This document shows, in pieces, positions 6,641 through 27,413 of a DNA stretch of 64,000 nt. Location of the stretch: contig CM000151.3 in NCBI GenBank assembly GCA_000004695.1, positions 7,232,001-7,296,000 of the forward strand. Reading direction: 5' to 3'. Source of the stretch: Dictyostelium discoideum. Lineage: Eukaryota. Each line of letters opens with the position of its first letter. The stretch's first letter is position 1. Below the pieces are notes generated by a model, which was given only the letters and a program-made list of their open reading frames with translations, had not been told where the DNA came from and made no database searches. Both the position numbers and the translations under genes were made by a program.

Positions 6641-9600
6641 ATGGAATCAGGATCACAAATCTTTCTTCCATATAAATCAGTTGGTTATGTCAGTTCAGGT
6701 GTACCATTTAAATTAAGAGCTGAAAAATTGCATTATTCAATTATGTTAGCCATTGGGAATTCTTTTCAATTATTAAATGTAATTATTATTTTTTTTTTTT
6801 AAAAAAATAAAAATATTATAAAAAAACATATATTAATGACATTATTATTATTATTATTATTATTAAATTAGTCAATTAAATTATTTCCAAGAATGGTATC
6901 AAATAGTCAAGAAGGTAAAATTAGAGATATGTCATTTTATAAGAAAGATCATTTTTTGACAACATGTAAAAAAGATATTATATTATGGAAAGGTCAATAT
7001 GAAGAATTTAGATTTAGAGGACATTCATCAAAGGTTATTAAATTGATGGTATTTGATAATATATTATTTTCATTGGCAAAAAACAATGAACTGATTATGT
7101 GGGATGTTGATTCACGTTTAATTTTTAAAGAACAATTACCAGAATTTAATGCAAAAACTCATCGTATAACAGAGATTGTCCATCCACTTGGATATTATAA
7201 TAAAATTTTAATTGGATTTGAAAGTGGTGAAGCACAAATTTGGAATATTAAAACAAAGAAATTAATATTTACATTCAATTTAGTAAAGGATAATAAAAAC
7301 ATTAAAGATAAAATCACCTCATTTCAACAGTCACCAGTTTCAGATATAATTGCAATTGGTTTTTCAGATGGTAATGTTATCATTCACAATTTGAAATTGA
7401 ATAAAACAGTATTAAGTTTTCAACAAAGAGGTTCAGTTTCATCGATTTCCTTTAGAAGTGACGGTCAAAAGCAACATGTTGCCACAAGTAGCCATAGTGG
7501 TGATATATTAATTTGGGATCTTGAAAAGAATAAACCTTTCCATACATTGAAAGCACATGATAGTGAATGTACAAAAGTTGAATTCCTAAGGGAAGAACCA
7601 ATCATTTGCACCACCGGTAACGATAATTCAATAAAGATGTGGCAATTCAACGGTGTAGATGGTGTACCAATTCTCTTAAGAGAACGTACCGGTCATTTAG
7701 ATCCACCAAAATCAAGCGAATTCTTTGGCGATGAACAAGAGAACTCAGTGATTTCAATCTCTGATCAATCAATTCGTTACGTTTCAATTGTTGCCTCCAC
7801 TTTTAATAAAGAATTATCAAAAAAGAATTTCAAAAAAGAAATGACTCCATTTAGTGGTTTCTCTACAAACTTTCGTAGAAATCGTAGTTGGGAAACTGCA
7901 GTTTCAATTCATGAAGATTCAAAACATGCTTTCACTTGGGATTGTTCAAGTTATTCCATAAATAAGAAATTAAATATTCAAGAACCAATTAGTTCAACTA
8001 AAATTTCAACTTGTGGTAATTTTGTTTTCTTTGGTACTGTTTATGGTAATCTATTGAAATTCAATATTCAATCTGGTATTAAACGTGCTAAAATTTTACC
8101 AAATATTCAAAAAACTTCAATAACAAGTATAATAGTTGAACCAACTAATCAATTTATAATTACAAGTGGTTTAGATTCAATTATAAATTATTGGGATTTT
8201 AATGATTTAAAATATTTATATTCAATTGATATTAATAATACCAATACAAATAATAAGGAAAATCAAGATAACAATAACAATGACAATAAAAAAAGTAAAA
8301 TTAGAATTTCAAAAATGTTATTACATAGTGAATCTGGTATATTTGCAGTGGTTTCAAATGATGATAAAATTAGATTATATGATATTGATACACGTAAATT
8401 AGTTAGATATTTCAATGTTAAAGGTAATGTTAATAGTATTGTTTTTAGTCATGATGGTCGTTGGATTATTGCAAGTACTCAAGTTGATTCGGTCGTTCGT
8501 GTACTTGATATTCCATCTGGTAAAATGATTGATTGGTTCAAAATGCCAAAACCAGTAACAAGTTTATCATTCTCTCCAAAAGGTGAATATTTAGTTACAA
8601 CTCATTCCGGACAATTACCAATTTATCTTTGGAGTAATCAATCTCATTTCGGTTCAGTTTTCCTTAAAACTCCACCTCAAATTCCAAATACAATCATTTT
8701 ACCTTCACAAGTTATTGAAATTTCACCAATTCAAGAATCATCTAATAATAAACAAAAAAGTTCAACTAAAAAATTAAAAGAAAAAGAACAACATGAACAA
8801 GATGAAGAATTTGAAATTCAACAAGATTTAGGTTTACCTGAAGAATTTGATGAAGAAATGGAAGATAATCAAGTTGATAATAATGATAATGATGCTGATG
8901 ATAATAAAAAATCAACTATTAAACAAATTGATCAATTAATTACATTATCAAGTGATGTTGCAAAAAGCAAATGGCAATCACTCTTAAATTTAGATATCAT
9001 TAAAGAAAGGAATAGACCAATTCAACAAAATGAAAAACCAGCTTTAGCACCTTTCTTTTTATCAACTATTCAAGGTTTAGAACCAAAATTCGCTAAAATT
9101 GATGTTGTTAATCCTTTAACTATTAAAACTGCTGTCTCAACTGGTGGTGGTGGTAGTGCAAATACAACTGGTTCAACTGATGATAATGAAAATAATGGTG
9201 AACCAACTGAAGAAGAATTAAAAGGTTGGGATAATTGGGCTGGTGCTGATGATGAAGAAAATGATGATGACGATGATGATGAAGACAACGAAAATGATGA
9301 TCAAGATGAAGATAGTGAAGATGATGAAGATGAAGGTGATGAAGACCTTGAAAAAACTACTGAAACTTTCAAAAATGAGAAAGAAATTTATAGATCAGAC
9401 AAAGTTATTAAAACTGATTCACTTCAAGGTACAAGAACTAATTTTAATTTATCATTAGAAAATGGTTATATAACTCAAAATTGTAAGTGTAAAAAAATTA
9501 AAAATTAATAATAATAATACTTTTTTAATTAATTAACTGACTTTTTTTTTTTTTTTTTTTTTAATTAATTATTTAATTTAGATTCAGAAAGTTTAAGAAT

Positions 9601-10198: not shown

Positions 10199-12136
10199 TT
10201 AATTAAAAGTTGTTGAATCAGAAGAAGAATCAGAAGAAGGTGAAGCAGGTTTCATTGATTGTAAGGACATTGTCATCCAATCGAAATTCCAAGTAGTTGG
10301 TTGACCAGCATAAGTGTATTTTTGATTCCATTGTGAATTCCAAGTGAATGGAGTTTCATTATCATGAGATGGACCAGATTGAGCATTTACTAAAAGAGCA
10401 GCAACCATATCAGCTGAAACAACTTTTGAATCGATACCACCGAAAGCATCAGGATCAAGGTATTGATTATTTGGGTCGTCAGCAGTGACTAAATCGAAAC
10501 GACTACTAATTTGATTACCAGCATTACCTTGTGAGAATGGATCATTTTGCCAGTTATTATAACGAAGCATAGCTTGGAATTGAGTTAATGAATGAATGTT
10601 ATTAGCATCACGTTTGAAAATCATTGATCTTGGACTTGCTTGATAAGAGAACCAGTTACCAAATTGTGCATAAGTTTCATTGAAACCAGTTAAACCATAA
10701 ATATTCTCATAGAATGGAATATTAAATGATGGCCAATAACCAGTACGTAAAATTGCTGTTTGATCACCATATTCAACGTAATCTGGTACTTGTTCTAAAA
10801 TATAAAGTGTACCATCTAATGCACCATAACCTTTAATAAATTTATTATAATCAACAATAATCCACTAAATTAATTAATAATAAAAAATAGTGTGTGTGTG
10901 TGTGTGTGTGTTAATAATAAAATATTAATATTTATATATATCTCTATAAATATATTGATTTTTAAAAATAAAACATACTTGATTATTATAAGTACCAGAA
11001 TTATATAATGAAAAAGTTTGACACCAAGATTCACCACCAGTAGCTAAACGATTGGCAACGATAACTCTTATCCATGAAAGAACAGATTCTGATGTAATTA
11101 AATGATAAAGATTATTATTCATTAAACCATTTGTAGTTTCAATTACAACAATCTTTGTATCTAATAAATAGAAATCATCAATTGAACTAAGAGTACCTGG
11201 GTAACCTGAAAACATTGTGACTTTTGATGCTGGTGGTTGACCATTAAATAAATATTTAAGATTATAAACTTTAAACATTCTAACCATTTCATAATATGAA
11301 GACCTATAAAAAAAAAAATAAAAAAATTAAAAGTTAATAAATTATTATTATTATTATTATTATTTAAATAATTTAAAAAATATATATATTTAAATAATTT
11401 ACCAAGTAGTATGACCAGAGAAAAGATCACTTAAATCATCAGTCATTTTAATTAAAGCTGAACAATGACCGGTTCTTCTCATAAATTCTTTGAAAGCTTG
11501 TTTTGGTGAAGTGGCAGTGGCTGGGGAGGTAACTTGTTTACCGTTGGTAAGGTTGAGGGCTGGACCAAGGTCAATCATATCACCATCCATATTCATTAAG
11601 AAAAATTCTGTGATGCCTAATGATTGTGAAGCGTCAACACCATTATCAATGACGGATTGGTTGTAACCACGTTGCATATATGTGATTTGAGTTAAAACAG
11701 TTTCAACATTTTGCCAATATAAATCATTTGATGGTGCACTGTCAATCATTGTTTGTAAGTATTGTAAATTCTCTTGAATCCAATTCTCAACATCTGATCC
11801 AATTACATTGTGGTATTCGTTATTGTACATGTTCATCCAATTTTGGTAAATCATTTCTTGGGAAATATAACCTTCTAAATAACCTGCACCTGCTGCAATG
11901 ATATCGTTTGGATAAAGTCCCTCTGATGAGCTAATACTCATAAATGACCAACCTGTAGTCATCATTTCATTGGAGAATATTGCTTGTGCAACACCATTTG
12001 AAAATGTACCTGGTTTAACATAATAGTTATCTGGTTGTGAATAAAATACAGTATATCCATCGTCAATGCTACTTTGTGATAAAACACTACCAATAATTGC
12101 AATGGTTAATAATAAAAGTGACCTTATTACTCTCAT
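10199..12136 (-). CDS. Phospholipase B-like (LAMA/PLBD family) secreted protein. Three exons, approx 11403-12136, 10979-11303 and 10199-10864, about 574 aa.
   Basis: The N-terminus has a signal peptide (MRVIRSLLLLTIAIIGSVLSQ). It contains GAGYLEGY and ..NQVWIIVDYNKFIKGYGALDGTLYILEQVPDY.., characteristic of phospholipase B-like proteins. Donors are gtaaat and gtatgt. Intron phases 2 and 0 restore the frame. A (GT)n run lies in intron 2. Confidence 0.88.
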
Positions 12137-13853: not shown

Positions 13854-15870
13854 ATGTCAAATACAAATATAAATGTACAATCATCAACCCCAAAGAAAAG
13901 TTTAGGGTCATCACAATACTCACTTGCTGGTTCATCAAGTAGTAACCTAAATAATATTAATAATAATAATAACAACAACAACAATAATAATAATAATAGT
14001 ACTGGACAAGAAAATAGTATTGATGATAGTGGAAGTTCATCATTTGTAAACTTTCCAGCATCAGAATGGTTATCTAAAGCAATGCATAAACATCCAGATA
14101 TATTAGAACTTCGTGAAAGAACTAGACCAATCACACAAGTTAAATCATATTCTAGAAATAAACGATCAAGTAAAACCGAAGCATCACATTCAATCAATGA
14201 TACAATGTTATTGAAATTGATTATGCAATATTTTCACGAAGAGAATTTAACCACATCATTAAAAAAGATTCAAGAGGAAACTAAAGTTCAATTCACACCA
14301 AACGAAGTTGATAAAGATTCATTAGAGAATTTACTCAGAATTGGTATAAAGGATACCAATTGGTTTGGACCATTGGAAGATATAGAGGATGCAGATCCAG
14401 AGGTTGAAACTTACCATTCCTATATCTCTGAAGATTCTCTAAATGAAAATGGTTTAGAAGGTGAAGGTAACCTAATTGAAGATCGTTATGATGAATCTCA
14501 AATAAGTAGAAATCCTGATGGTACAATTAAAGCTGCAACATTTAATAGATTATTATTATGGTTAATTGGTAATTTTAATGGTCCTGGTATGGTTATTATT
14601 AATTATTATTAATTATTATTTATTATTTAATACAATGTATATTAATATTTTATTTTTTAATTTTTTATTTTTATTATTTTTATTATAGATGTAAATGAAT
14701 TTAAAAAAATATTCTTTTTAACATATCCATCATTTACAACAGCGGAAGCAATATTAAATAAATTTACACAAATCTATCAATTATTTGATAATATTGAATC
14801 AGCTCAAGTAATTTGTTTTATTAGATTTTGGATCGAACAACATCCAACAGATTTCAATGAAAAACTATTAGCAATTTTAAATAATTTTATTGAACATCAA
14901 GTTGCAGCTTCACATGCTAAACAATTACGTGCAGTTATTAATCTTAAAATTGTAATTGACTATAATTAATTAATTAATTAATTTATAAATTATATATTAA
15001 TATTAATATTATTATTATTATTATTATTATTTTATAAAAAAAAAAAAATAGGAAAATTATAAAGAAGCTAGAAAAGAAATTAAAGATCCACCAGAACCAA
15101 AAGTACCAAAAAATATATTTTCACCAACTTTAACATTTGATGATATTGATGAGGAAGAGATAGCAAGACAGTTATGTTGTATTGATTTTGCATTGTATGA
15201 ATTGATTAAACCATCAGAATTTTTAATCAAGGGTTGGACCAAACCACAATATAGAAATAAGGCAGTGAATCTATTGAATATGATGAGAAGATTCAATGAT
15301 TTCACTAAATGGATAGCAGCATCGATTTTAAATGAACAAAATTCAAAGGGTCGTTCGAAATTATTGGGTAGATTTTTAAAGATTTCCGAACATTTACGAG
15401 CAAATAATAATTTCCATTCATTGATGGCAATTTATGGTGGCATTAATAACACTCATGTTTTTAGAACCAAGGCAATTCGTAAGGATCTCTCTAGACAGCA
15501 ACAAGAGACCTATGCAGAGTTGGAGAAATTGTTTGCAAGTGAGAATAGTTTTAGAAATTATAGAATAGCTTACAAGGATGCTAAACCACCTTGTATCCCT
15601 TTCCTTGGTATTCATTTACGTGATTTGGCATTTGTCGATGAATCAAATCCCGATAGAATTAATAATCTCTTAAATTTAAACAAACGTCGTGTCATTTGGA
15701 GAGTCATCGTCAACACTATGCGTTATCAACCAATTCCTTATTACTTTTTAAAGGTTCATCAAATTTCTTTGTTTTTAACTGAATTAAAAACTGAATCCGA
15801 ACAACCTCAATTAACTTTAGATTTATCTTCTCATGATACTGTATTACCAAGTTCACCATCTTCAAAATAA
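13854..15870 (+). CDS. Ras guanine-nucleotide exchange factor with LisH, RasGEF-N (REM) and CDC25-homology domains. Three exons, approx 13854-14586, 14689-14951 and 15052-15870, about 604 aa.
   Basis: A LisH-like motif is present (TMLLKLIMQYFHEENLTTSLKKIQEE). The REM domain reads AATFNRLLLWLIGNFNGP|DVNEFKKIFFLTYPSFTTAE.. and the CDC25 domain reads FDDIDEEEIARQLCCIDFALYELIKPSEFL...FLGIHLRDLAFVDE. Donors are gtatgg and gtaatt. Intron phases 1 and 0 were verified. Confidence 0.88.
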
Positions 15871-16196: not shown

Positions 16197-16281
16197 TTAA
16201 TTATGACTTGAATGAATAATAGGTGGACAAATTAATGCAAATTGAATTTGTTCAGATTGATTCTTTTCTTTTTGTTTTTCT

Positions 16282-16338
<57 letters not shown>

Positions 16339-17372
16339 GCCTCACAATTATTTTCATTTTGTTGTTGTTGTTGTTGTTGTTTTTCTTGAGTAATTTCATC
16401 CCAAATCTCTTGTAAAGATATGAAAGCTGAAAGTGCACCACAACCACCAATATATCCATCATTTTCAATTTCATATATTGAACAAATACATAAACCAAAT
16501 TCAGCGATTGCACTAATCAATGATTTAATTTCATTTGTTCTATTATTTCTTAAAATTATTAATGTTTCTTTATTTTCCTTATATTCTTCATCTTCTTCTT
16601 CTTCTTCAATTTTTTGTTGTTTCTCTTTATTTATTTTATTTTTATTTTTTAATTTTAAAATTTGAATTATTGTATTAATTAAACCATAAATAATTCTAAT
16701 TATAAAAACTACTAAACTATAAACCCAAACGAAATTTGAAACTTTACAAACTAAATCCATAAATTTATCAGTAACTTGAAAGATTTTAATTCTTGTACCC
16801 CAAAATATTATATCATTAAGTTCTGATATAAAATTAAATGAATGGTCAATTAATTCTAGTGTATTTAAAAATGATGTACTAATATTTGTAAATGATTTAA
16901 GTGTATTTAGAATTTGACGTTTTCTAGTTAAATTTTGGTTCTCTTTTATCTCTTGATTTTGTTTATCTTTAAATTGTTTCAATGATTCAATTAAATTTTG
17001 AAAAAATTCTACTAAATTATTAAATTCTCTAAAGAATCCAAATAATCTAAACACAATTCTTGCATCACAAAAACTTGATTCTAATGATTTTAATCTTTCT
17101 TTAACTAATTTATCATTAAATTTGTTTGATTTAAATAAAATAGTTTCTAAAATTTTTATTATTCTTTTATTATTATTATTATTGACATTATTATTAATTC
17201 TTTTTTTTTTTCTTTTATCGATAAATGTATTTAATAATCTGGTTATATATTTTTTATCAACAAAATGATGTAAAAGTTGACTAAAGTATTGTATAAATTT
17301 AAATACTTTATCTCTTCCATCTAATGAATTAAAAACACTAATAATTTTATCATTAAATTCTAATATATTCAT
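16197..17372 (-). CDS. PEX11-family peroxisomal membrane protein with low-complexity Asn/Gln/Glu inserts. Single-exon ORF of 391 aa.
   Basis: The N-terminal motif FNSLDGRDKVFKFIQYFSQLL matches the Pex11 signature (..DGREK..R..QY). The C-terminus has an amphipathic/TM segment (LISAIAEFGLCICSIYEIENDGYIGGCGALSAFISLQEIW). ATG was verified at 17372. Confidence 0.65.
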
Positions 17373-17626: not shown

Positions 17627-18930
17627 TCAAATATCTCCTTCTTTTGAAATTGTAGAATCACTTTTTTCTATATTACTATTATTGGAATCAGTGATATTAT
17701 TTGAAAGTTTTTCTAATTTATTTGATATATTTTTACTGTTCTTGGAATTTGATTTTGTTTCTTTTGTAAAATCAGATGAATCATCTTTCCTTATTTTTTT
17801 TATTGCTCTTAAAAATATATAATCCCAAAATGAGTTTCCTAATACATACATTATTACAATCATTTGAGAAGTATCACATATTCCTGTAAGAAAATTTGAA
17901 ATTATCATCTGTTTTTTAAAAAAAAAGATAAAAAAAAAAAATTAAAAAAAAAAATAAATATACTTGTTTTTAAACTTAAAAATTAAATTGAATTAAATAA
18001 AATCAAAAAATAATTATTACATCTCTATAAGGTTCAGGATCTCTTGGTTCAAAAAAGTTAATTACAATATCTTGAGCTAAAACCACTATAATACAAATTA
18101 TAATTGTATAAACTAATAATTTTGATTTATAAATCATTTGTTTATAACTTTCTTGATATTTTGAAGTTTTAGATGATAGTTTCATTCTTTTTACTAAAAT
18201 TGAACCAAAAATAATTTGGGATGAAAAAAATATTGCTAAAAATACTAACATTCCAATCGCTTCAAGAATTGCAAGAGTATCATCCATTAAAAATAAAATT
18301 GAAATTGGAACTTGCCAACAGAAATAAATTGTTACAATTGAAAATGAAAATATATAAATCTTTTTTGTACTTCTAGTTCTAATTTCTTTAGATATAAAAA
18401 ATTGGTATAAGAGTTGTAACCATAATGAACCTAAAAAAGACCAACTAACAAAAACGAACCAAATTCCCCATCTTTTCCATATTCAATTTAGTTTTTAATT
18501 TTTCATTAATTTCTAAACCTTTTTTTTTTTTTTAATTTTTTTTTAAATATTTAAATTAATAACATACGAAAAGAAAAAATAAAACACTGTACCAACTTGC
18601 CAATTATCTGGATAAGCAATAAATAGAGCAGAAAAAACTACTCTTGTTGCGCAAAATAATGTCATACACAGAAATACAAAAAATTTGGTGTTTAACATGT
18701 TTTTATTAATTAATTTCTCTTTACCTTCATGAAATACTTGAGCTCCTATTATTTTTTTAATTTAATAATTATATTTTTTATTTTTTAATTAATTTATTAA
18801 TTTATTATTTATTTTTTTATATATATAATTTCTTCATACCATTAATCAATGTAAAAGCGAAATATACAACCAATTTACAAACAAACATTGCCATTGCTAT
18901 TTTCTTTTCATGATTTGGAATTTCCCCCAT
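17627..18930 (-). CDS. Seven-transmembrane protein, paralog 2 of a tandem pair. Four exons, approx 18840-18930, 18568-18745, 18021-18471 and 17627-17908, about 333 aa.
   Basis: The spliced product is MGEIPNHEKKIAMAMFVCKLVVYFAFTLING|GAQVFHEGKEKLINKNMLNTKFFVFLCMTLFCATRVVFSALFIAYPDNWQVGTVFYFFFS|WGIWFVFVSWSFLGSLW...ILEAIGMLVFLAIFF...EPRDPEPYRD|MIISNFLTGICDTSQMIVIMYVLGNSF.., with seven hydrophobic helices. Donors are gtatga, gtatgt and gtaata. Intron phases are consistent. Confidence 0.65.
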
Positions 18931-19218
18931 TTTTTTCTTTATTATTTAGAGTAAAATAAAATAAAAAAAATTTATTATTTTATTATTTTTTTTTTCTATT
19001 TTTGTTTTTTATTTTTATTAAAAGAGGTAATGATTTGTGGCAGTATTTTTTTTTTTTTAAAAAAAAAAAATAAAAAAAGAAAAAATAAAAAAAATAAAAA
19101 TTAAAATAAAATAACAGAAAGTGTGAAATCTCATTGTGAATCGAAACTGTTTCGTGGTAGGCGATCACTTTTTTTTTTTTAAAAATTTTTTAAAAATAAA
19201 AAAATGGGTTTTGATTTT

Positions 19219-19276
<58 letters not shown>

Positions 19277-19358
19277 ATTTTCGAATTATCTCGGAATTAG
19301 ATTTAAGCACCTCCTCCCTTCAGTATTAGCAGTGAATTATTTTTTATTTTTTTATTAT

Positions 19359-20516
19359 TTACATAACATTATTAATAGTATCATCAGTTGAAACTTTACT
19401 ATTATTATTTTCACTATTTATTGATATAGTATTACTTTCATTACTTTCATTTGATTTTACAGTTGGTAAAGATACCGGTAATGAATTTAAACTACTACCA
19501 CCAATAACAATATGATTTTTTTGTTTTTCAATTCTTTTAAATTTGAAATAATTTTTAAAAGAAAGTTCACCCATTACAAAAATTACCATTATCATTTGAA
19601 ATGAGTCAGCAATTCCCACAATGAAATTACTTATTATCATATAAACATATGGTTGAGGATTTTGTGGTAAAATAAAATTTATTACTATATCTTGTACTAC
19701 TACAACTATAATTACAATGATAATTGTTGATAGTAATATCTTTGATTTTAAAATCATCTTTTTATAGAAATCTTCATATTGTGCTTTTTTTGAAGATTTC
19801 TTCATTCTTCCAACTAATATCCAACCATTAATTGCAACAGCTAATGAATATACACTTATAAATACAACCATTCCTATTGCCTCTAAAATTGCAATAGAAT
19901 TATCCATTAAAAATATAATTTGAATAATAATTTGCCAACATAGATAAATACCAACTAAAATTGAAGAAATATAATAAATCTTTTTTATATTATTAGAACT
20001 CTTTGTTTTCATTTTTTTAGAAAGAAAGAATTGATATACAATTTGGGCCCATAATGATCCTAAAAAACTCCATTCTTAAAATTTTTAAAATTTTTAAAAT
20101 TTTAAAATTATTAATAATTAATTTATTTTATTTATTTTTTCAAATTAGATTGATACCTTACCACAAAATACAAAAAATACTCCATAAGAGAACCAAAAAT
20201 AGTGCCAAGTACCAACTTTCCAATCGTTAGGGAAAATTACAAATAATACTGAAAATATAACTCTTGTTAAACAAAAAAGAAATAAACAAAGGAATATTAT
20301 AAATTTTGTATTTACCATATTCCTTACAACAACAATTGACTTTCTTTCATGCCAAACTTGGAAACCTTTATATTAAATCATATATTAAAATTTATTATTT
20401 TATTAAATTATTATTTTTTAATTTAATTTATCTTTACCATTCAAAACCATGAAAATAAAATAAAAAACTATTTTAAAAATAAAAAGTGTATAGGCTATCT
20501 TTTCTTCATGATTCAT
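19359..20516 (-). CDS. Seven-transmembrane protein, paralog 1 of the tandem pair. Three exons, approx 20438-20516, 20162-20365 and 19359-20074, about 332 aa.
   Basis: The spliced product is MNHEEKIAYTLFIFKIVFYFIFMVLNG|GFQVWHERKSIVVVRNMVNTKFIIFLCLFLFCLTRVIFSVLFVIFPNDWKVGTWHYFWFSYGVFFVFCG|EWSFLGSLWAQIVYQFF...ILEAIGMVVFISVYS...LPQNPQPYVYMIISNFIVGIADSFQMIMVIFVMG.. with seven TM helices and a Ser/Asn-rich tail. It is about 45% identical to paralog 2. Confidence 0.7.
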
Positions 20517-22557: not shown

Positions 22558-23694
22558 TCAATTTAATAATTTTGTTTTTTCATTTGGTTCTTGTTGTTGA
22601 CGTTGAGAAATAAAATTATTATTATTATTATTATTACTATTACTATTGTTGTTGTTATTATTATTATTATTATCGAAAAGATCACTACGACCATCATCAA
22701 TATTATTAATTGAAATATCAACACCTTCATTGGCACTATATAACATTGGTTTAAATTCATGAGGATTTAAAGCTTTATGTTGTAATAGGATTTCACAAAT
22801 TTCATCATCAGAAGTTTGATTAAAAGTAAAAGTATGAGATTTTACAAATCTTACAAAAACTGAACGATCTTGATACTTTTCATTGATAACATGATCAATT
22901 AAATCTTGATATTTGAAAATATCGAAAATGGTAATATTTTTAAATTGTTTAACGGTTGTATAGGAGAGGTGAGACATCATATTCTTGAAATCTAAATCAG
23001 AGAGTAAATTAACGTAGGCAATAAAGTACATTAGAGGGAAAAAGACATAGGTAAGGAAGAATTGAACGATTAGACTAATTGAACTAACCATATTTGTTCC
23101 AAATAAAAGATGAACGTTTAAACCGTTGCATGGCATATCGCCATATTGGTGGTTACGCCAGTAAACCCATACAAACTTTAGTCCCATAAATACAAGAATA
23201 TTAACAAATAGGAAAATGGTTAAACGCACCTCATGTTTCTTTTCACCTTCAATGAAAATTTTAGAAGTGGCTAAAATATTTTGAATTCTCTTTCTCTTTA
23301 AATATAATAAATAATCCAAAGTTAAATATAATATCACTTCTAATAAAAAGCAAATAAATGAAATTAATAAAATTAATCCAGAATATTGATCACCTTGTAA
23401 ACCAAATAGACTAACTGGGAAATTTAATGAATATTTTGAATCGGTATGGAAATATTCATTTAAACATTCTGGAACTCCTTCTATGAAACAATTATCTAAA
23501 GACATTGAATCCGTTGTACCATTTTTACCATTTCCAGAACATTCTACAATTGTCATTGTTGTAAATTCTTGATAAAATCCAACTTCCATAAAAACCATAA
23601 AACCTAATGTAATAATTCCAATAACTATAATTCTTACAATTGTAGGTTGAACTGTTTTTAAATAATTATTAAAATCAAATTTGAATTGATCCAT
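22558..23694 (-). CDS. Four-pass membrane protein (member a of a tandem triplicated family), 378 aa, single exon.
   Basis: ATG and stop were verified. The predicted topology has a short N-terminus (MDQFKFDFNNYLK) and TM1, followed by an extracellular loop of about 60 aa with 3 Cys. It continues with TM2, an intracellular KRKRIQ loop, TM3, a short extracellular loop with 1 Cys, and TM4. Last comes a 110-150 aa tail with conserved YLSDLDFK..M..LS and SEIxEILL motifs. The gene ends in poly-N. Confidence 0.8.
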   Translation of the reverse strand: MDQFKFDFNNYLKTVQPTIVRIIVIGIITLGFMVFMEVGFYQEFTTMTIVECSGNGKNGTTDSMSLDNCFIEGVPECLNEYFHTDSKYSLNFPVSLFGLQGDQYSGLILLISFICFLLEVILYLTLDYLLYLKRKRIQNILATSKIFIEGEKKHEVRLTIFLFVNILVFMGLKFVWVYWRNHQYGDMPCNGLNVHLLFGTNMVSSISLIVQFFLTYVFFPLMYFIAYVNLLSDLDFKNMMSHLSYTTVKQFKNITIFDIFKYQDLIDHVINEKYQDRSVFVRFVKSHTFTFNQTSDDEICEILLQHKALNPHEFKPMLYSANEGVDISINNIDDGRSDLFDNNNNNNNNNSNSNNNNNNNFISQRQQQEPNEKTKLLN

Positions 23695-24368: not shown

Positions 24369-25430
24369 TTAATTTATTAATTTATCTTTTTCATTATGAT
24401 CATCATCATTACTACCAATAAATGATTTTGAAAGTTTTGATTCATTATAAAGCATTGGTTGAAAATCTTGTGGATTTGAAATTTTATAAGATAATAGAAT
24501 TTCAACAATTTCAGAAATTGGTGTTTTGAAAAAGCTAAATGTATTCTTACGTAAAAATAAAATTAATTTTGAATCTTTTGGATGTCTTTGAGGTATAGCA
24601 GAATCAATGATTTTATTATATTTATCAAAATCCAATACAGTGATTTGTTTAATTTGTTTAATACTTTCATGAGAGAGATGGTCAGTCATTTTCTTGAAAT
24701 CCAAATCTGATAAATAATTAATCCAACTACCAAGGAAAACCAATGGGAAAATTATATATGGAATTGAACTTGTGATTAAGGTTCCAATCGATGCAGATAA
24801 GGTGCCCAAGAAATTCACATTGTAAACATTACCATCACATTCGATATTACTATATTGGTTATCCCTATAAATGATCCAAATCACTTTTAAACCAATATAA
24901 ATCAAACCTGAAACTGCAAAATAAATAGTTAACCTTTTTTCAAACTTTTTATTACCATTTAAAAATATTTTAGATTCTGATAAAATTTGTTGAATTCTCG
25001 TTCTCTTTACCCAATTAAAATAATGCATTCCTTGATAAATTAATTGAATTCCAAGGAATAATAAAACTGCAAAACCAATTAATAATGAACTATATTTATC
25101 AGTTGGCAAACCCAACATTGACACTGAAAAAGCTAAAGAATAATTTGAACCTGTATTAAATTGTTGATTAACGCATGTTGTAAATTTAAATCCTTCATAA
25201 AAACAATTTTCTAAAGAATTTGAACTTGTAATACTACTACTATTATTTTTAATTACAATTGATGGTAATGTACATCCAACAATTTGCATTTTGTCAAAAT
25301 TTGAAAAAAATGTATATTCACCAACCATTAATAATCCAAAACCAATTAAAATTGTTAATAAAACTCTAATTGGTTTTGGTTGTGTAACATTTAAATAATT
25401 ATTAAATTCGAATGTAAATTGATCATTCAT
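24369..25430 (-). CDS. Four-pass membrane protein (family member b), 353 aa, single exon.
   Basis: The N-terminus reads MNDQFTFEFNNYLNVTQPKPIR. It shares the GC..P...NCF...C....GSNYSLAF ectoloop and the YLSDLDFKKM tail motifs, and is about 35-40% identical to members a and c. Confidence 0.8.
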   Translation of the reverse strand: MNDQFTFEFNNYLNVTQPKPIRVLLTILIGFGLLMVGEYTFFSNFDKMQIVGCTLPSIVIKNNSSSITSSNSLENCFYEGFKFTTCVNQQFNTGSNYSLAFSVSMLGLPTDKYSSLLIGFAVLLFLGIQLIYQGMHYFNWVKRTRIQQILSESKIFLNGNKKFEKRLTIYFAVSGLIYIGLKVIWIIYRDNQYSNIECDGNVYNVNFLGTLSASIGTLITSSIPYIIFPLVFLGSWINYLSDLDFKKMTDHLSHESIKQIKQITVLDFDKYNKIIDSAIPQRHPKDSKLILFLRKNTFSFFKTPISEIVEILLSYKISNPQDFQPMLYNESKLSKSFIGSNDDDHNEKDKLIN

Positions 25431-26387: not shown

Positions 26388-27413
26388 TTATAAATATTGA
26401 TTTTGAATTAAATTATCATTAATTCTATTTTCATTTAAAAAAGTAGATTTAATATTTTTTGTTTGTATTGATTTAAATTCATCAGGTGAAGATTCTTTAT
26501 GTAATAATAAAATTTCAACAATTTCAGATGTTGAAGTTTTCCAAAATTTGAATGTATTACATTTTAAAAATAAAATAAAATTTTTATCATTTGAATATCT
26601 TTTTTTTAAAGTTGAATTTAATAATTTATTATATTTATCCATATCAAATATATAAATTTCATTAATTTTTTCTAAACTAATTTTTGAAAGATTTTCAGCC
26701 AATTTTTTAAATTCTAATTCTGATAAATAATTTAACCAACCCATTAAAAAAACACCAGGAATAATTAAATAACCAATTGAACCCATTACTATACCTGAAA
26801 TATAAGAAAATAAACTTTTTTCAAATTCCAAGTAATATGTATCTCCTGAACATTCAATTTCACTATAAATATCGTATCTATTTAATAACCACATAATTTT
26901 AGAACAAATATAACCAATACCAGTAACTAATAGAAATATTGTAACTTTTTTTTCATTTCTTTTATTTCCATCAATTAAAATTAAAGAACCTGATAAAACA
27001 TCTTGAATTCTTTTTCTCTTTACACTTTGAAAATATTGTGCAGTTTGGAATGTACTTAAAAATGTTATAAATAAAATCACCAATATTGTACCAATCAAAC
27101 CATTATATTTATCAGATTTTCCACCAACATTAAATGCTAAAGAATAATTTGAACCTGTATTATAATAATTATTTATACATTTTGTTACTAATAAATCATT
27201 ATTAAAACAATTATCAATATTCATTTCATTTGAATCTTTTTGATTTGGAAGTGAACAGCCAATTGCAACAAATTTTTCAAAACCTTTAAAAAAACCGGCT
27301 TCAGTTAAAATCATTAAGATGACCCCAATCGCCATTTGAATATAGATTCTAAATGGTTTTGGTTGACATTTTTTTAAATAACTACTAAATTCAAATGAAA
27401 AATGATTATCCAT
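26388..27413 (-). CDS. Four-pass membrane protein (family member c), 341 aa, single exon.
   Basis: The N-terminus reads MDNHFSFEFSSYLKKCQPKPFR. It has the same topology and motifs (NYLSELEFKKL, SEIVEILL). Confidence 0.8.
   Translation of the reverse strand: MDNHFSFEFSSYLKKCQPKPFRIYIQMAIGVILMILTEAGFFKGFEKFVAIGCSLPNQKDSNEMNIDNCFNNDLLVTKCINNYYNTGSNYSLAFNVGGKSDKYNGLIGTILVILFITFLSTFQTAQYFQSVKRKRIQDVLSGSLILIDGNKRNEKKVTIFLLVTGIGYICSKIMWLLNRYDIYSEIECSGDTYYLEFEKSLFSYISGIVMGSIGYLIIPGVFLMGWLNYLSELEFKKLAENLSKISLEKINEIYIFDMDKYNKLLNSTLKKRYSNDKNFILFLKCNTFKFWKTSTSEIVEILLLHKESSPDEFKSIQTKNIKSTFLNENRINDNLIQNQYL

Follow-up and report, generated by a model that had tools for sequence, protein, structure and literature searches.

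Gene models of a tandem seven-transmembrane pair

We analyzed a 64,000-nt stretch of the Dictyostelium discoideum genome (assembly GCA_000004695.1, contig CM000151.3, positions 7,232,001 to 7,296,000; hereafter the window), in which two tandem genes on the minus strand encode small proteins with seven transmembrane (TM) helices. These paralogs, P1 (332 aa) and P2 (333 aa), occupy positions 17627-20516 of the window and differ in where their introns lie. Their models were read from the sequence of the minus strand between 17300 and 20900, by listing open reading frames (ORFs) and then assembling exons, with the following result.

20438..20516, minus strand: P1 exon 1, from the ATG at 20516 (MNHEEKIA..MVLN) up to the first base of G27; kept at loci L001-L003 of related species
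20366..20437, minus strand: P1 intron 1, 72 nt, phase 1, GTAAAG..AAAG; position common to P2 intron 1
20162..20365, minus strand: P1 exon 2, end of TM1 to first half of TM3
20075..20161, minus strand: P1 intron 2, 87 nt, phase 1, GTAAGG..TAAG; within codon E95 (G|AA), P1-specific, coding sequence (CDS) nt 283
19359..20074, minus strand: P1 exon 3, remainder of TM3 to TM7, helix 8, Ser/Asn-rich tail, stop
18840..18930, minus strand: P2 exon 1, from the ATG at 18930
18746..18839, minus strand: P2 intron 1, 94 nt, phase 1; position common to P1 intron 1
18568..18745, minus strand: P2 exon 2
18472..18567, minus strand: P2 intron 2, 96 nt, phase 2, FFF|S; within codon S90 (TC|A), P2-specific, P1-equivalent CDS nt 257
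18021..18471, minus strand: P2 exon 3, TM3 to TM6
17909..18020, minus strand: P2 intron 3, 112 nt, phase 0, GTAATA..ACAG; at the D241/M242 border (PEPYRD|MIISNF)
17627..17908, minus strand: P2 exon 4, TM7, helix 8, Ser/Asn/Lys-rich tail, stop

All five introns have canonical GT..AG boundaries and an A+T content of 88-96%. In P1 CDS coordinates, the TM3 introns of P1 (nt 283) and P2 (nt 257) lie 26 nt apart. At the position of P2 intron 3, no intron was found in P1 or in any outgroup gene examined.

These models agree in most respects with an initial annotation of the locus, which had described two adjacent minus-strand seven-TM paralogs of ~333 aa sharing five conserved blocks, each of which we recovered when comparing P1 with P2 (5/5). 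Identity had been put at ~45% and is slightly higher by BLASTP (50% over 327 residues, E 8e-111). The upstream, phase-2 placement of the TM3 intron in P2 held, as did the extra phase-0 intron of that gene between PEPYRD and MIISNF, a junction also carried by the AX4 reference. For P1, the phase and position given for intron 2 were right, but the residue named there was not: because the codon is split as G|AA, the spliced residue is Glu95 (..VFFVFC-E-WSFLG) rather than Gly.

Independent annotations of D. discoideum strains contain proteins identical to our models (KAM9946235.1 for the 332-aa P1 and KAM9946234.1 for the 333-aa P2), and the E95 junction of P1 (VFFVFCEWSFLG) is present in four further strain annotations. 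In AX4, DDB_G0277021 (Q550U6) has the same three P2 junctions and starts at an internal methionine, Met13. P1 is split in that reference into DDB_G0276909 (57 aa, the exon 2 ORF at 20145-20318) and DDB_G0276911 (217 aa, the exon 3 ORF at 19359-20012), which are pieces of one 332-aa gene. Likewise, only the last-exon ORF (212-224 aa) is annotated for P1 in D. citrinum, D. firmibasis, D. dimigraforme, and one D. discoideum strain. The N-terminal exons sit beyond an intron, which accounts for the truncated annotation of several orthologs and of a Polysphondylium violaceum relative. In that relative (P0025, 228 aa; L012 1122-2187), we observed an unannotated first exon of 106 codons at 1122-1440, joined to the rest by a TG|G phase-2 intron of ~55-58 nt. 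Logan contigs containing the P1 ORF (L007-L009) aligned to the window without gaps; being colinear with the genome, they represent unspliced genomic DNA. P1 and P2 are already known in databases as hypothetical proteins, and a literature search on the four DDB_G identifiers given in this text found no papers. The corrected P1 gene model is new here.

Conservation and selection

The tandem pair is kept in D. citrinum (L001), D. dimigraforme (L002), and D. firmibasis (L003). Across these species and D. discoideum, every P1 and P2 intron occurs at an identical codon and phase, and all exons of both genes are kept as intact ORFs. Intron lengths drift freely among the four, at 72/64/137/68 nt for P1 intron 1, 87/98/205/77 nt for P1 intron 2, and 112/140/157/104 nt for P2 intron 3.

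Whole-gene pairwise ratios of non-synonymous to synonymous substitution rates (dN/dS) ranged from 0.13 to 0.20 for P1 and from 0.08 to 0.17 for P2. The disputed exons were likewise constrained, with dN/dS of 0.06-0.17 over the first 115 codons of P1 (the N-terminal exons that AX4 does not annotate as part of the gene) and 0.12-0.35 for the section of P2 exon 4 that encodes TM7. The intact ORFs in four species, together with whole-gene dN/dS of 0.08-0.20, indicate that neither copy is decaying, contrary to one suggestion of the initial annotation. The proportion of synonymous differences (pS) between P1 and P2 was 0.62, a level at which synonymous sites are near saturation and from which we conclude that the duplication long predates the species complex. 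P1 and P2 are two functional products of an old tandem duplication.

A family of dictyostelid relatives

An exhaustive HMMER search with an orthologue profile against 1.84 billion representatives (clusters at 50% identity) returned 48 relatives of P1 and P2 at E<=1e-3, 35 of them at E<=1e-10. All named relatives are dictyostelid, from Dictyostelium, Polysphondylium, Cavenderia, Tieghemostelium, Acytostelium, and Synstelium. A word-indexed profile search with a trimmed family alignment (A3) recovered 17 Dictyostelium proteins only and none from plants or animals, and searching the family profile against PDB sequences gave no meaningful match. In a neighbor-joining (NJ) tree of the family, P1 and P2 formed sister clades in 100/100 bootstraps, each with genes from the D. 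discoideum complex (four species) and from no other species. Sister to the two was a clade of group 1-3 genes from Cavenderia fasciculata, P. violaceum, Tieghemostelium lacteum, Synstelium, and Acytostelium. The duplication is nested in a multigene family of small orphan seven-TM proteins.

The initial annotation had recognized no match to the cAR/Crl, GABA-B-like, or frizzled-like receptor classes, which is correct at the sequence level: P1, P2, and 28 relatives had no Pfam match to Dicty_CAR, 7tm_3, Frizzled, or PF06454, even at E<=10. Two other domain hits were dismissed as noise, namely Pam17 on P1 (Pfam E 0.02, under the cut-off) and EBP/EXPERA on C. fasciculata P0015 (22.8 bits, where the cut-off is 25.7). 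The latter protein (909 aa, labeled "actin binding protein E") carries cofilin/ADF and SH3 domains ahead of a complete seven-TM family domain at residues 554-873, and is probably two adjacent genes fused in the gene model rather than a true fusion.

Intron positions across the family

Gene structures of relatives were mapped onto P1 CDS coordinates, giving the following intron sites.

nt 79 (TM1), phase 1: P1 and P2 only
nt 257 (TM3), phase 2: P2 only
nt 283 (TM3), phase 1: P1 only
nt 308 (TM3; TG|G, the Trp codon equivalent to P1 W103), phase 2: D. purpureum P0017, C. fasciculata P0024 and P0016, and the P. violaceum gene in L012
nt 717 (before TM7), phase 0: P2 only
nt 735, phase 0: C. fasciculata P0016
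nt 742, phase 1: D. purpureum P0017
nt 787, phase 1: D. discoideum DDB_G0282843
nt 806, phase 2: C. fasciculata P0024

None of the outgroup genes examined had an intron at nt 79, 257, 283, or 717. The TM3 intron of P1 precedes the W103 site by 25 nt, that of P2 by 51 nt. We take the W103 intron to be the ancestral one; both paralogs are without it, and neither the TM3 intron of P1 nor that of P2 is ancestral. Among the relatives, T. lacteum P0013 (L004 3001-4038) is intronless; D. discoideum DDB_G0282843 (L006 3001-4405) lacks the W103 intron, which the D. purpureum relative P0017 keeps. Because one of these genes has lost all introns and another has lost some, intron turnover is family-wide and not special to P1 and P2. 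In C. fasciculata P0024 (L010 1501-2905), an annotated 180-nt "intron 3" is probably coding, as tblastn with relatives reads through it and the model is without TM4-5.

Probable loss of an ancestral intron and lineage-specific gains

Inferring the history by parsimony from the observed intron positions, we find that loss of an ancestral intron followed by lineage-specific gains is the best fit for the discordance between P1 and P2, with a probability of roughly 0.72. The family ancestor would have carried a phase-2 intron within the TM3 Trp codon. On the stem leading to P1 and P2, before duplication, this intron would have been lost and the phase-1 TM1 intron at nt 79 gained. After duplication, new introns would have appeared upstream of the old site, in P1 at a distance of 25 nt (phase 1) and in P2 at 51 nt (phase 2), and P2 would also have gained the phase-0 intron before TM7. 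All of these changes would have been fixed before the lineages of D. discoideum, D. citrinum, D. firmibasis, and D. dimigraforme split. The initial annotation had proposed intron gain, loss, or sliding after duplication; the turnover stands, with the difference that the loss appears to predate the duplication, that gains would fall on both sides of it, and that sliding is disfavored.

Several observations weigh against this history. No D. purpureum ortholog of P1 or P2 was found, and the D. purpureum PEX11 neighborhood (L013) contained no homologue within 10 kb and had different neighbors. The outgroup genes are known from automated models, some with plain errors, as in C. fasciculata P0024. 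The splice junctions themselves rest on annotation, canonical signals, and cross-species conservation. Moreover, two gains falling within 51 nt of the lost intron would have a chance of only ~1-2% (a rough, post hoc figure), a hint of relocation, or of some local bias, for which loss plus gain offers no explanation.

One alternative is intron relocation, in which a single ancestral TM3 intron shifted 25 nt upstream in P1 and 51 nt in P2, with no loss and no unrelated gains, either by sliding or by transposition; the latter route would run through reverse splicing, reverse transcription, and recombination. Besides the low chance of two new introns arising so near a lost one, relocation would account for the finding that all genes examined but two (the intronless T. 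lacteum P0013 and DDB_G0282843) have exactly one intron within a 51-nt TM3 zone, at nt 257, 283, or 308, and for the similar scatter in a second zone around TM7, at nt 717, 735, 742, 787, and 806. Nonetheless, we consider relocation unlikely. The coding sequence on both sides of all three TM3 sites is homologous and ungapped throughout the family (e.g., SYGVFFVFCEWSFLGSLW, SWGIWFVFVSWSFLGSLW, and SWGVFFIFVEWSFIAAFW), and the stretches separating nt 257, 283, and 308 can be aligned as homologs, with no gaps, among P1, P2, and outgroups, which excludes boundary sliding by exonization or intronization. The implied shifts are 25, 26, and 51 nt, and a Monte Carlo analysis supported sliding by 1 bp only, with longer distances unsupported (PMC3488318). 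Finally, the introns had no similarity to their flanking exons (lowest shuffle rank 3/200 among 20 tests). A tandem-duplication origin was rejected on the same comparison of 20 introns and flanking exons against shuffles, which gave no signal, and no exon-like sequence was found inside any of the 20 introns examined. The introns are too A+T-rich and divergent for a homology comparison between old and new ones.

Taken alone, true intron transposition may be reflected in the three mutually exclusive positions within 51 nt of TM3 and the five within ~90 nt around TM7, a reading that we regard as rather unlikely. Under it, an excised intron would reinsert a few tens of nt away and then be copied back into the genome. 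If it were true, this dictyostelid seven-TM family would be a natural system for catching the mechanism of intron transposition, and would itself stand as an uncatalogued class of GPCR-like receptors in dictyostelids.

A history of differential loss, in which introns already stood at all three sites (nt 257, 283, and 717) before duplication and the two daughters lost different subsets, seems very unlikely. Intron loss does occur in the family, as the intronless P0013 and the missing W103 intron of DDB_G0282843 attest. However, this scheme requires more events (three stem gains and then at least three losses), no outgroup gene examined has an intron at any of the three positions, and introns 26 nt apart would imply a 26-nt micro-exon. 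It is highly improbable that the discordance is an annotation artifact or the mark of a pseudogene, with one model mis-spliced or one copy unspliced, truncated, and decaying (P2 ending at ..DVIIIF and a stop, or P1 consisting of the 217-aa ORF only): AX4 does annotate P1 as two small genes, and the Logan contigs with the P1 ORF are genomic, but the exons are kept as ORFs in four species while intron lengths vary freely, the P1 N-terminus and the TM7 part of P2 exon 4 show the constraint given above, and without these exons TM1-3 or TM7 would be missing from a confidently predicted seven-helix bundle.

Loss plus lineage-specific gain would make this locus a polarized case of intron turnover, with one loss and ~4 gains that all became fixed ahead of the radiation of the D. 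discoideum species complex. Intron loss is generally regarded as the dominant process in Amoebozoa. Discordant intron positions among paralogs are a well-known class of observation; what is new here is a polarized history in which different nearby introns would have replaced an ancestral TM3 intron in each paralog. This is a fairly ordinary case of turnover and does not overturn current understanding.

Predicted fold and proposed function

To model the fold, we used AlphaFold2 with a 30-sequence family alignment, in place of a 10-sequence alignment whose model was unusable (predicted local distance difference test [pLDDT] 40.8). The 30-sequence model reached a pLDDT of 80.4 and a predicted template modeling score (pTM) of 0.78. 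Its helices span residues 3-39, 46-70, 80-111, 114-151, 153-189, 195-229, and 236-262, followed by a short helix 8 and a tail that is disordered from residue 281. When the model was searched with Foldseek, all of the top 50 matches (50/50) were G-protein-coupled receptors (GPCRs), at E values of 5e-4 to 2e-2. The modeled fold of the family is thus GPCR-like, though without a sequence match to known classes. Setting the sequence against the modeled helix boundaries, we counted 4, 6, and 10 Lys/Arg residues in the loops after TM1, TM3, and TM5, and 1, 0, and 0 in the other three loops. These counts place the N-terminus outside and the C-terminus inside, as in GPCRs. With seven TM helices, this orientation, and the predicted helix packing, the family would belong to the GPCR-fold seven-TM superfamily.

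Against this assignment, the model comes from the 30-sequence alignment only, and any seven-TM protein may drift to GPCR-like packing. The microswitches of class A are also absent, with no DRY at the end of TM3 and no CWxP in any member. A DRY-like triplet occurs in only 6/76 family members. We also considered the NPQPY of P1 as a class A NPxxY switch and rejected it: it lies in the outer TM6-TM7 loop, which in the model has six residues and no helix, and it reads DPEPY in P2.

The predicted picture is of a bare GPCR-fold bundle that exposes hardly any surface to the outside. It would have an N-terminus of 2-6 residues and very short outer loops and, on the cytoplasmic side, loops rich in Lys/Arg, a short helix 8, and a Ser/Asn-rich tail that is disordered. 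From this model, P1 and P2 most likely act as heptahelical receptors or sensors. A ligand, if any, would bind within the helix bundle at the conserved polar residues Q29, E159, Q222-D223, N227, D251, and Q254, and output would pass through the cytoplasmic loops and tail. P1 and P2 may couple to G proteins or may instead serve as endomembrane scaffolds like TOM1 or GPR137.

The GPCR-fold assignment is new here, for a family that has no Pfam model and whose named members are all dictyostelid. This receptor-like multigene family comprises at least 48 clusters at 50% identity, has a confidently predicted GPCR-like fold, and is without a Pfam model or literature of its own. Published counts of Dictyostelium GPCRs may not include it.

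Genomic neighborhood

Other genes in this part of the window are as follows.

6893-9508, plus strand: WDR36/Utp21
10199-12136, minus strand: phospholipase B exons
13854-15870, plus strand: RasGEF exons
16197-17372, minus strand: PEX11
22558-23694, 24369-25430, and 26388-27413, minus strand: three tandem intronless paralogs of 378, 353, and 341 aa, just upstream of the seven-TM pair

The order of PEX11, RasGEF, and the seven-TM genes is kept across the D. discoideum complex and is not found at the D. purpureum PEX11 locus. The upstream intronless paralogs are hydrophobic orphans with no Pfam match, the first two being 39% identical (E 2e-83). Similar-sized genes lie upstream of the pair in D. 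citrinum, D. dimigraforme, and D. firmibasis.

Comparison with known systems

The known receptors of the same organism, namely the cAR/Crl, GrlA-R (GABA-B-like), and frizzled/smoothened-like proteins, differ from P1 and P2, which have no Dicty_CAR, 7tm_3, or Frizzled match, no ectodomain, and much shorter loops. Comparable in build are the THH1/TOM1/TOM3 proteins (PF06454), plant tonoplast seven-TM proteins that serve as host factors for tobamovirus replication and are, like P1 and P2, small seven-pass proteins with no extra domains. UniRef labels P2 (Q550U6) and several relatives as "THH1/TOM1/TOM3 domain-containing protein," an automatic label that our searches did not reproduce: with current Pfam-A, PF06454 matched 0/30 family members at E<=10, P1 and P2 had no match to it at E<=1, and profile searches recovered no plant or non-dictyostelid named sequence. 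Nothing observed here points to a role related to viruses. TOM1-type proteins have likewise been placed in the GPCR-like superfamily (PMC11195488).

By description only, the pair can also be likened to GPR137/GPR137B, lysosomal GPCR-like regulators of Rag/mTORC1 that consist of a bare seven-TM domain. GPR137 represents an ancient eukaryotic orphan class with a reported D. discoideum homologue (PMC12716839), though nothing identifies P1 or P2 as that protein. The Remi-sans-famille (RSF) GPCRs offer a further comparison, as an orphan, seven-TM-only family with amoebozoan members for which a weak structural link to THH1/TOM1/TOM3 has been reported (eLife 2025, PMC12716839). By contrast, the defining RSF motif, even in a relaxed version, occurs in 0/76 of the sequences examined here, and the extra RSF helix is absent from our family model.

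For the introns, the closest parallel is with near intron pairs, which have been described together with sliding and tandem-duplication relocation in Drosophila and other gene families (Lehmann et al. 2010; Rogozin et al., PMC3488318). As in those cases, homologous genes here have introns a few to ~50 nt apart rather than at identical sites. P1, P2, and their relatives differ in showing three positions rather than two within 51 nt, with no detectable duplicated exon remnant and with the coding sequence kept across all three.

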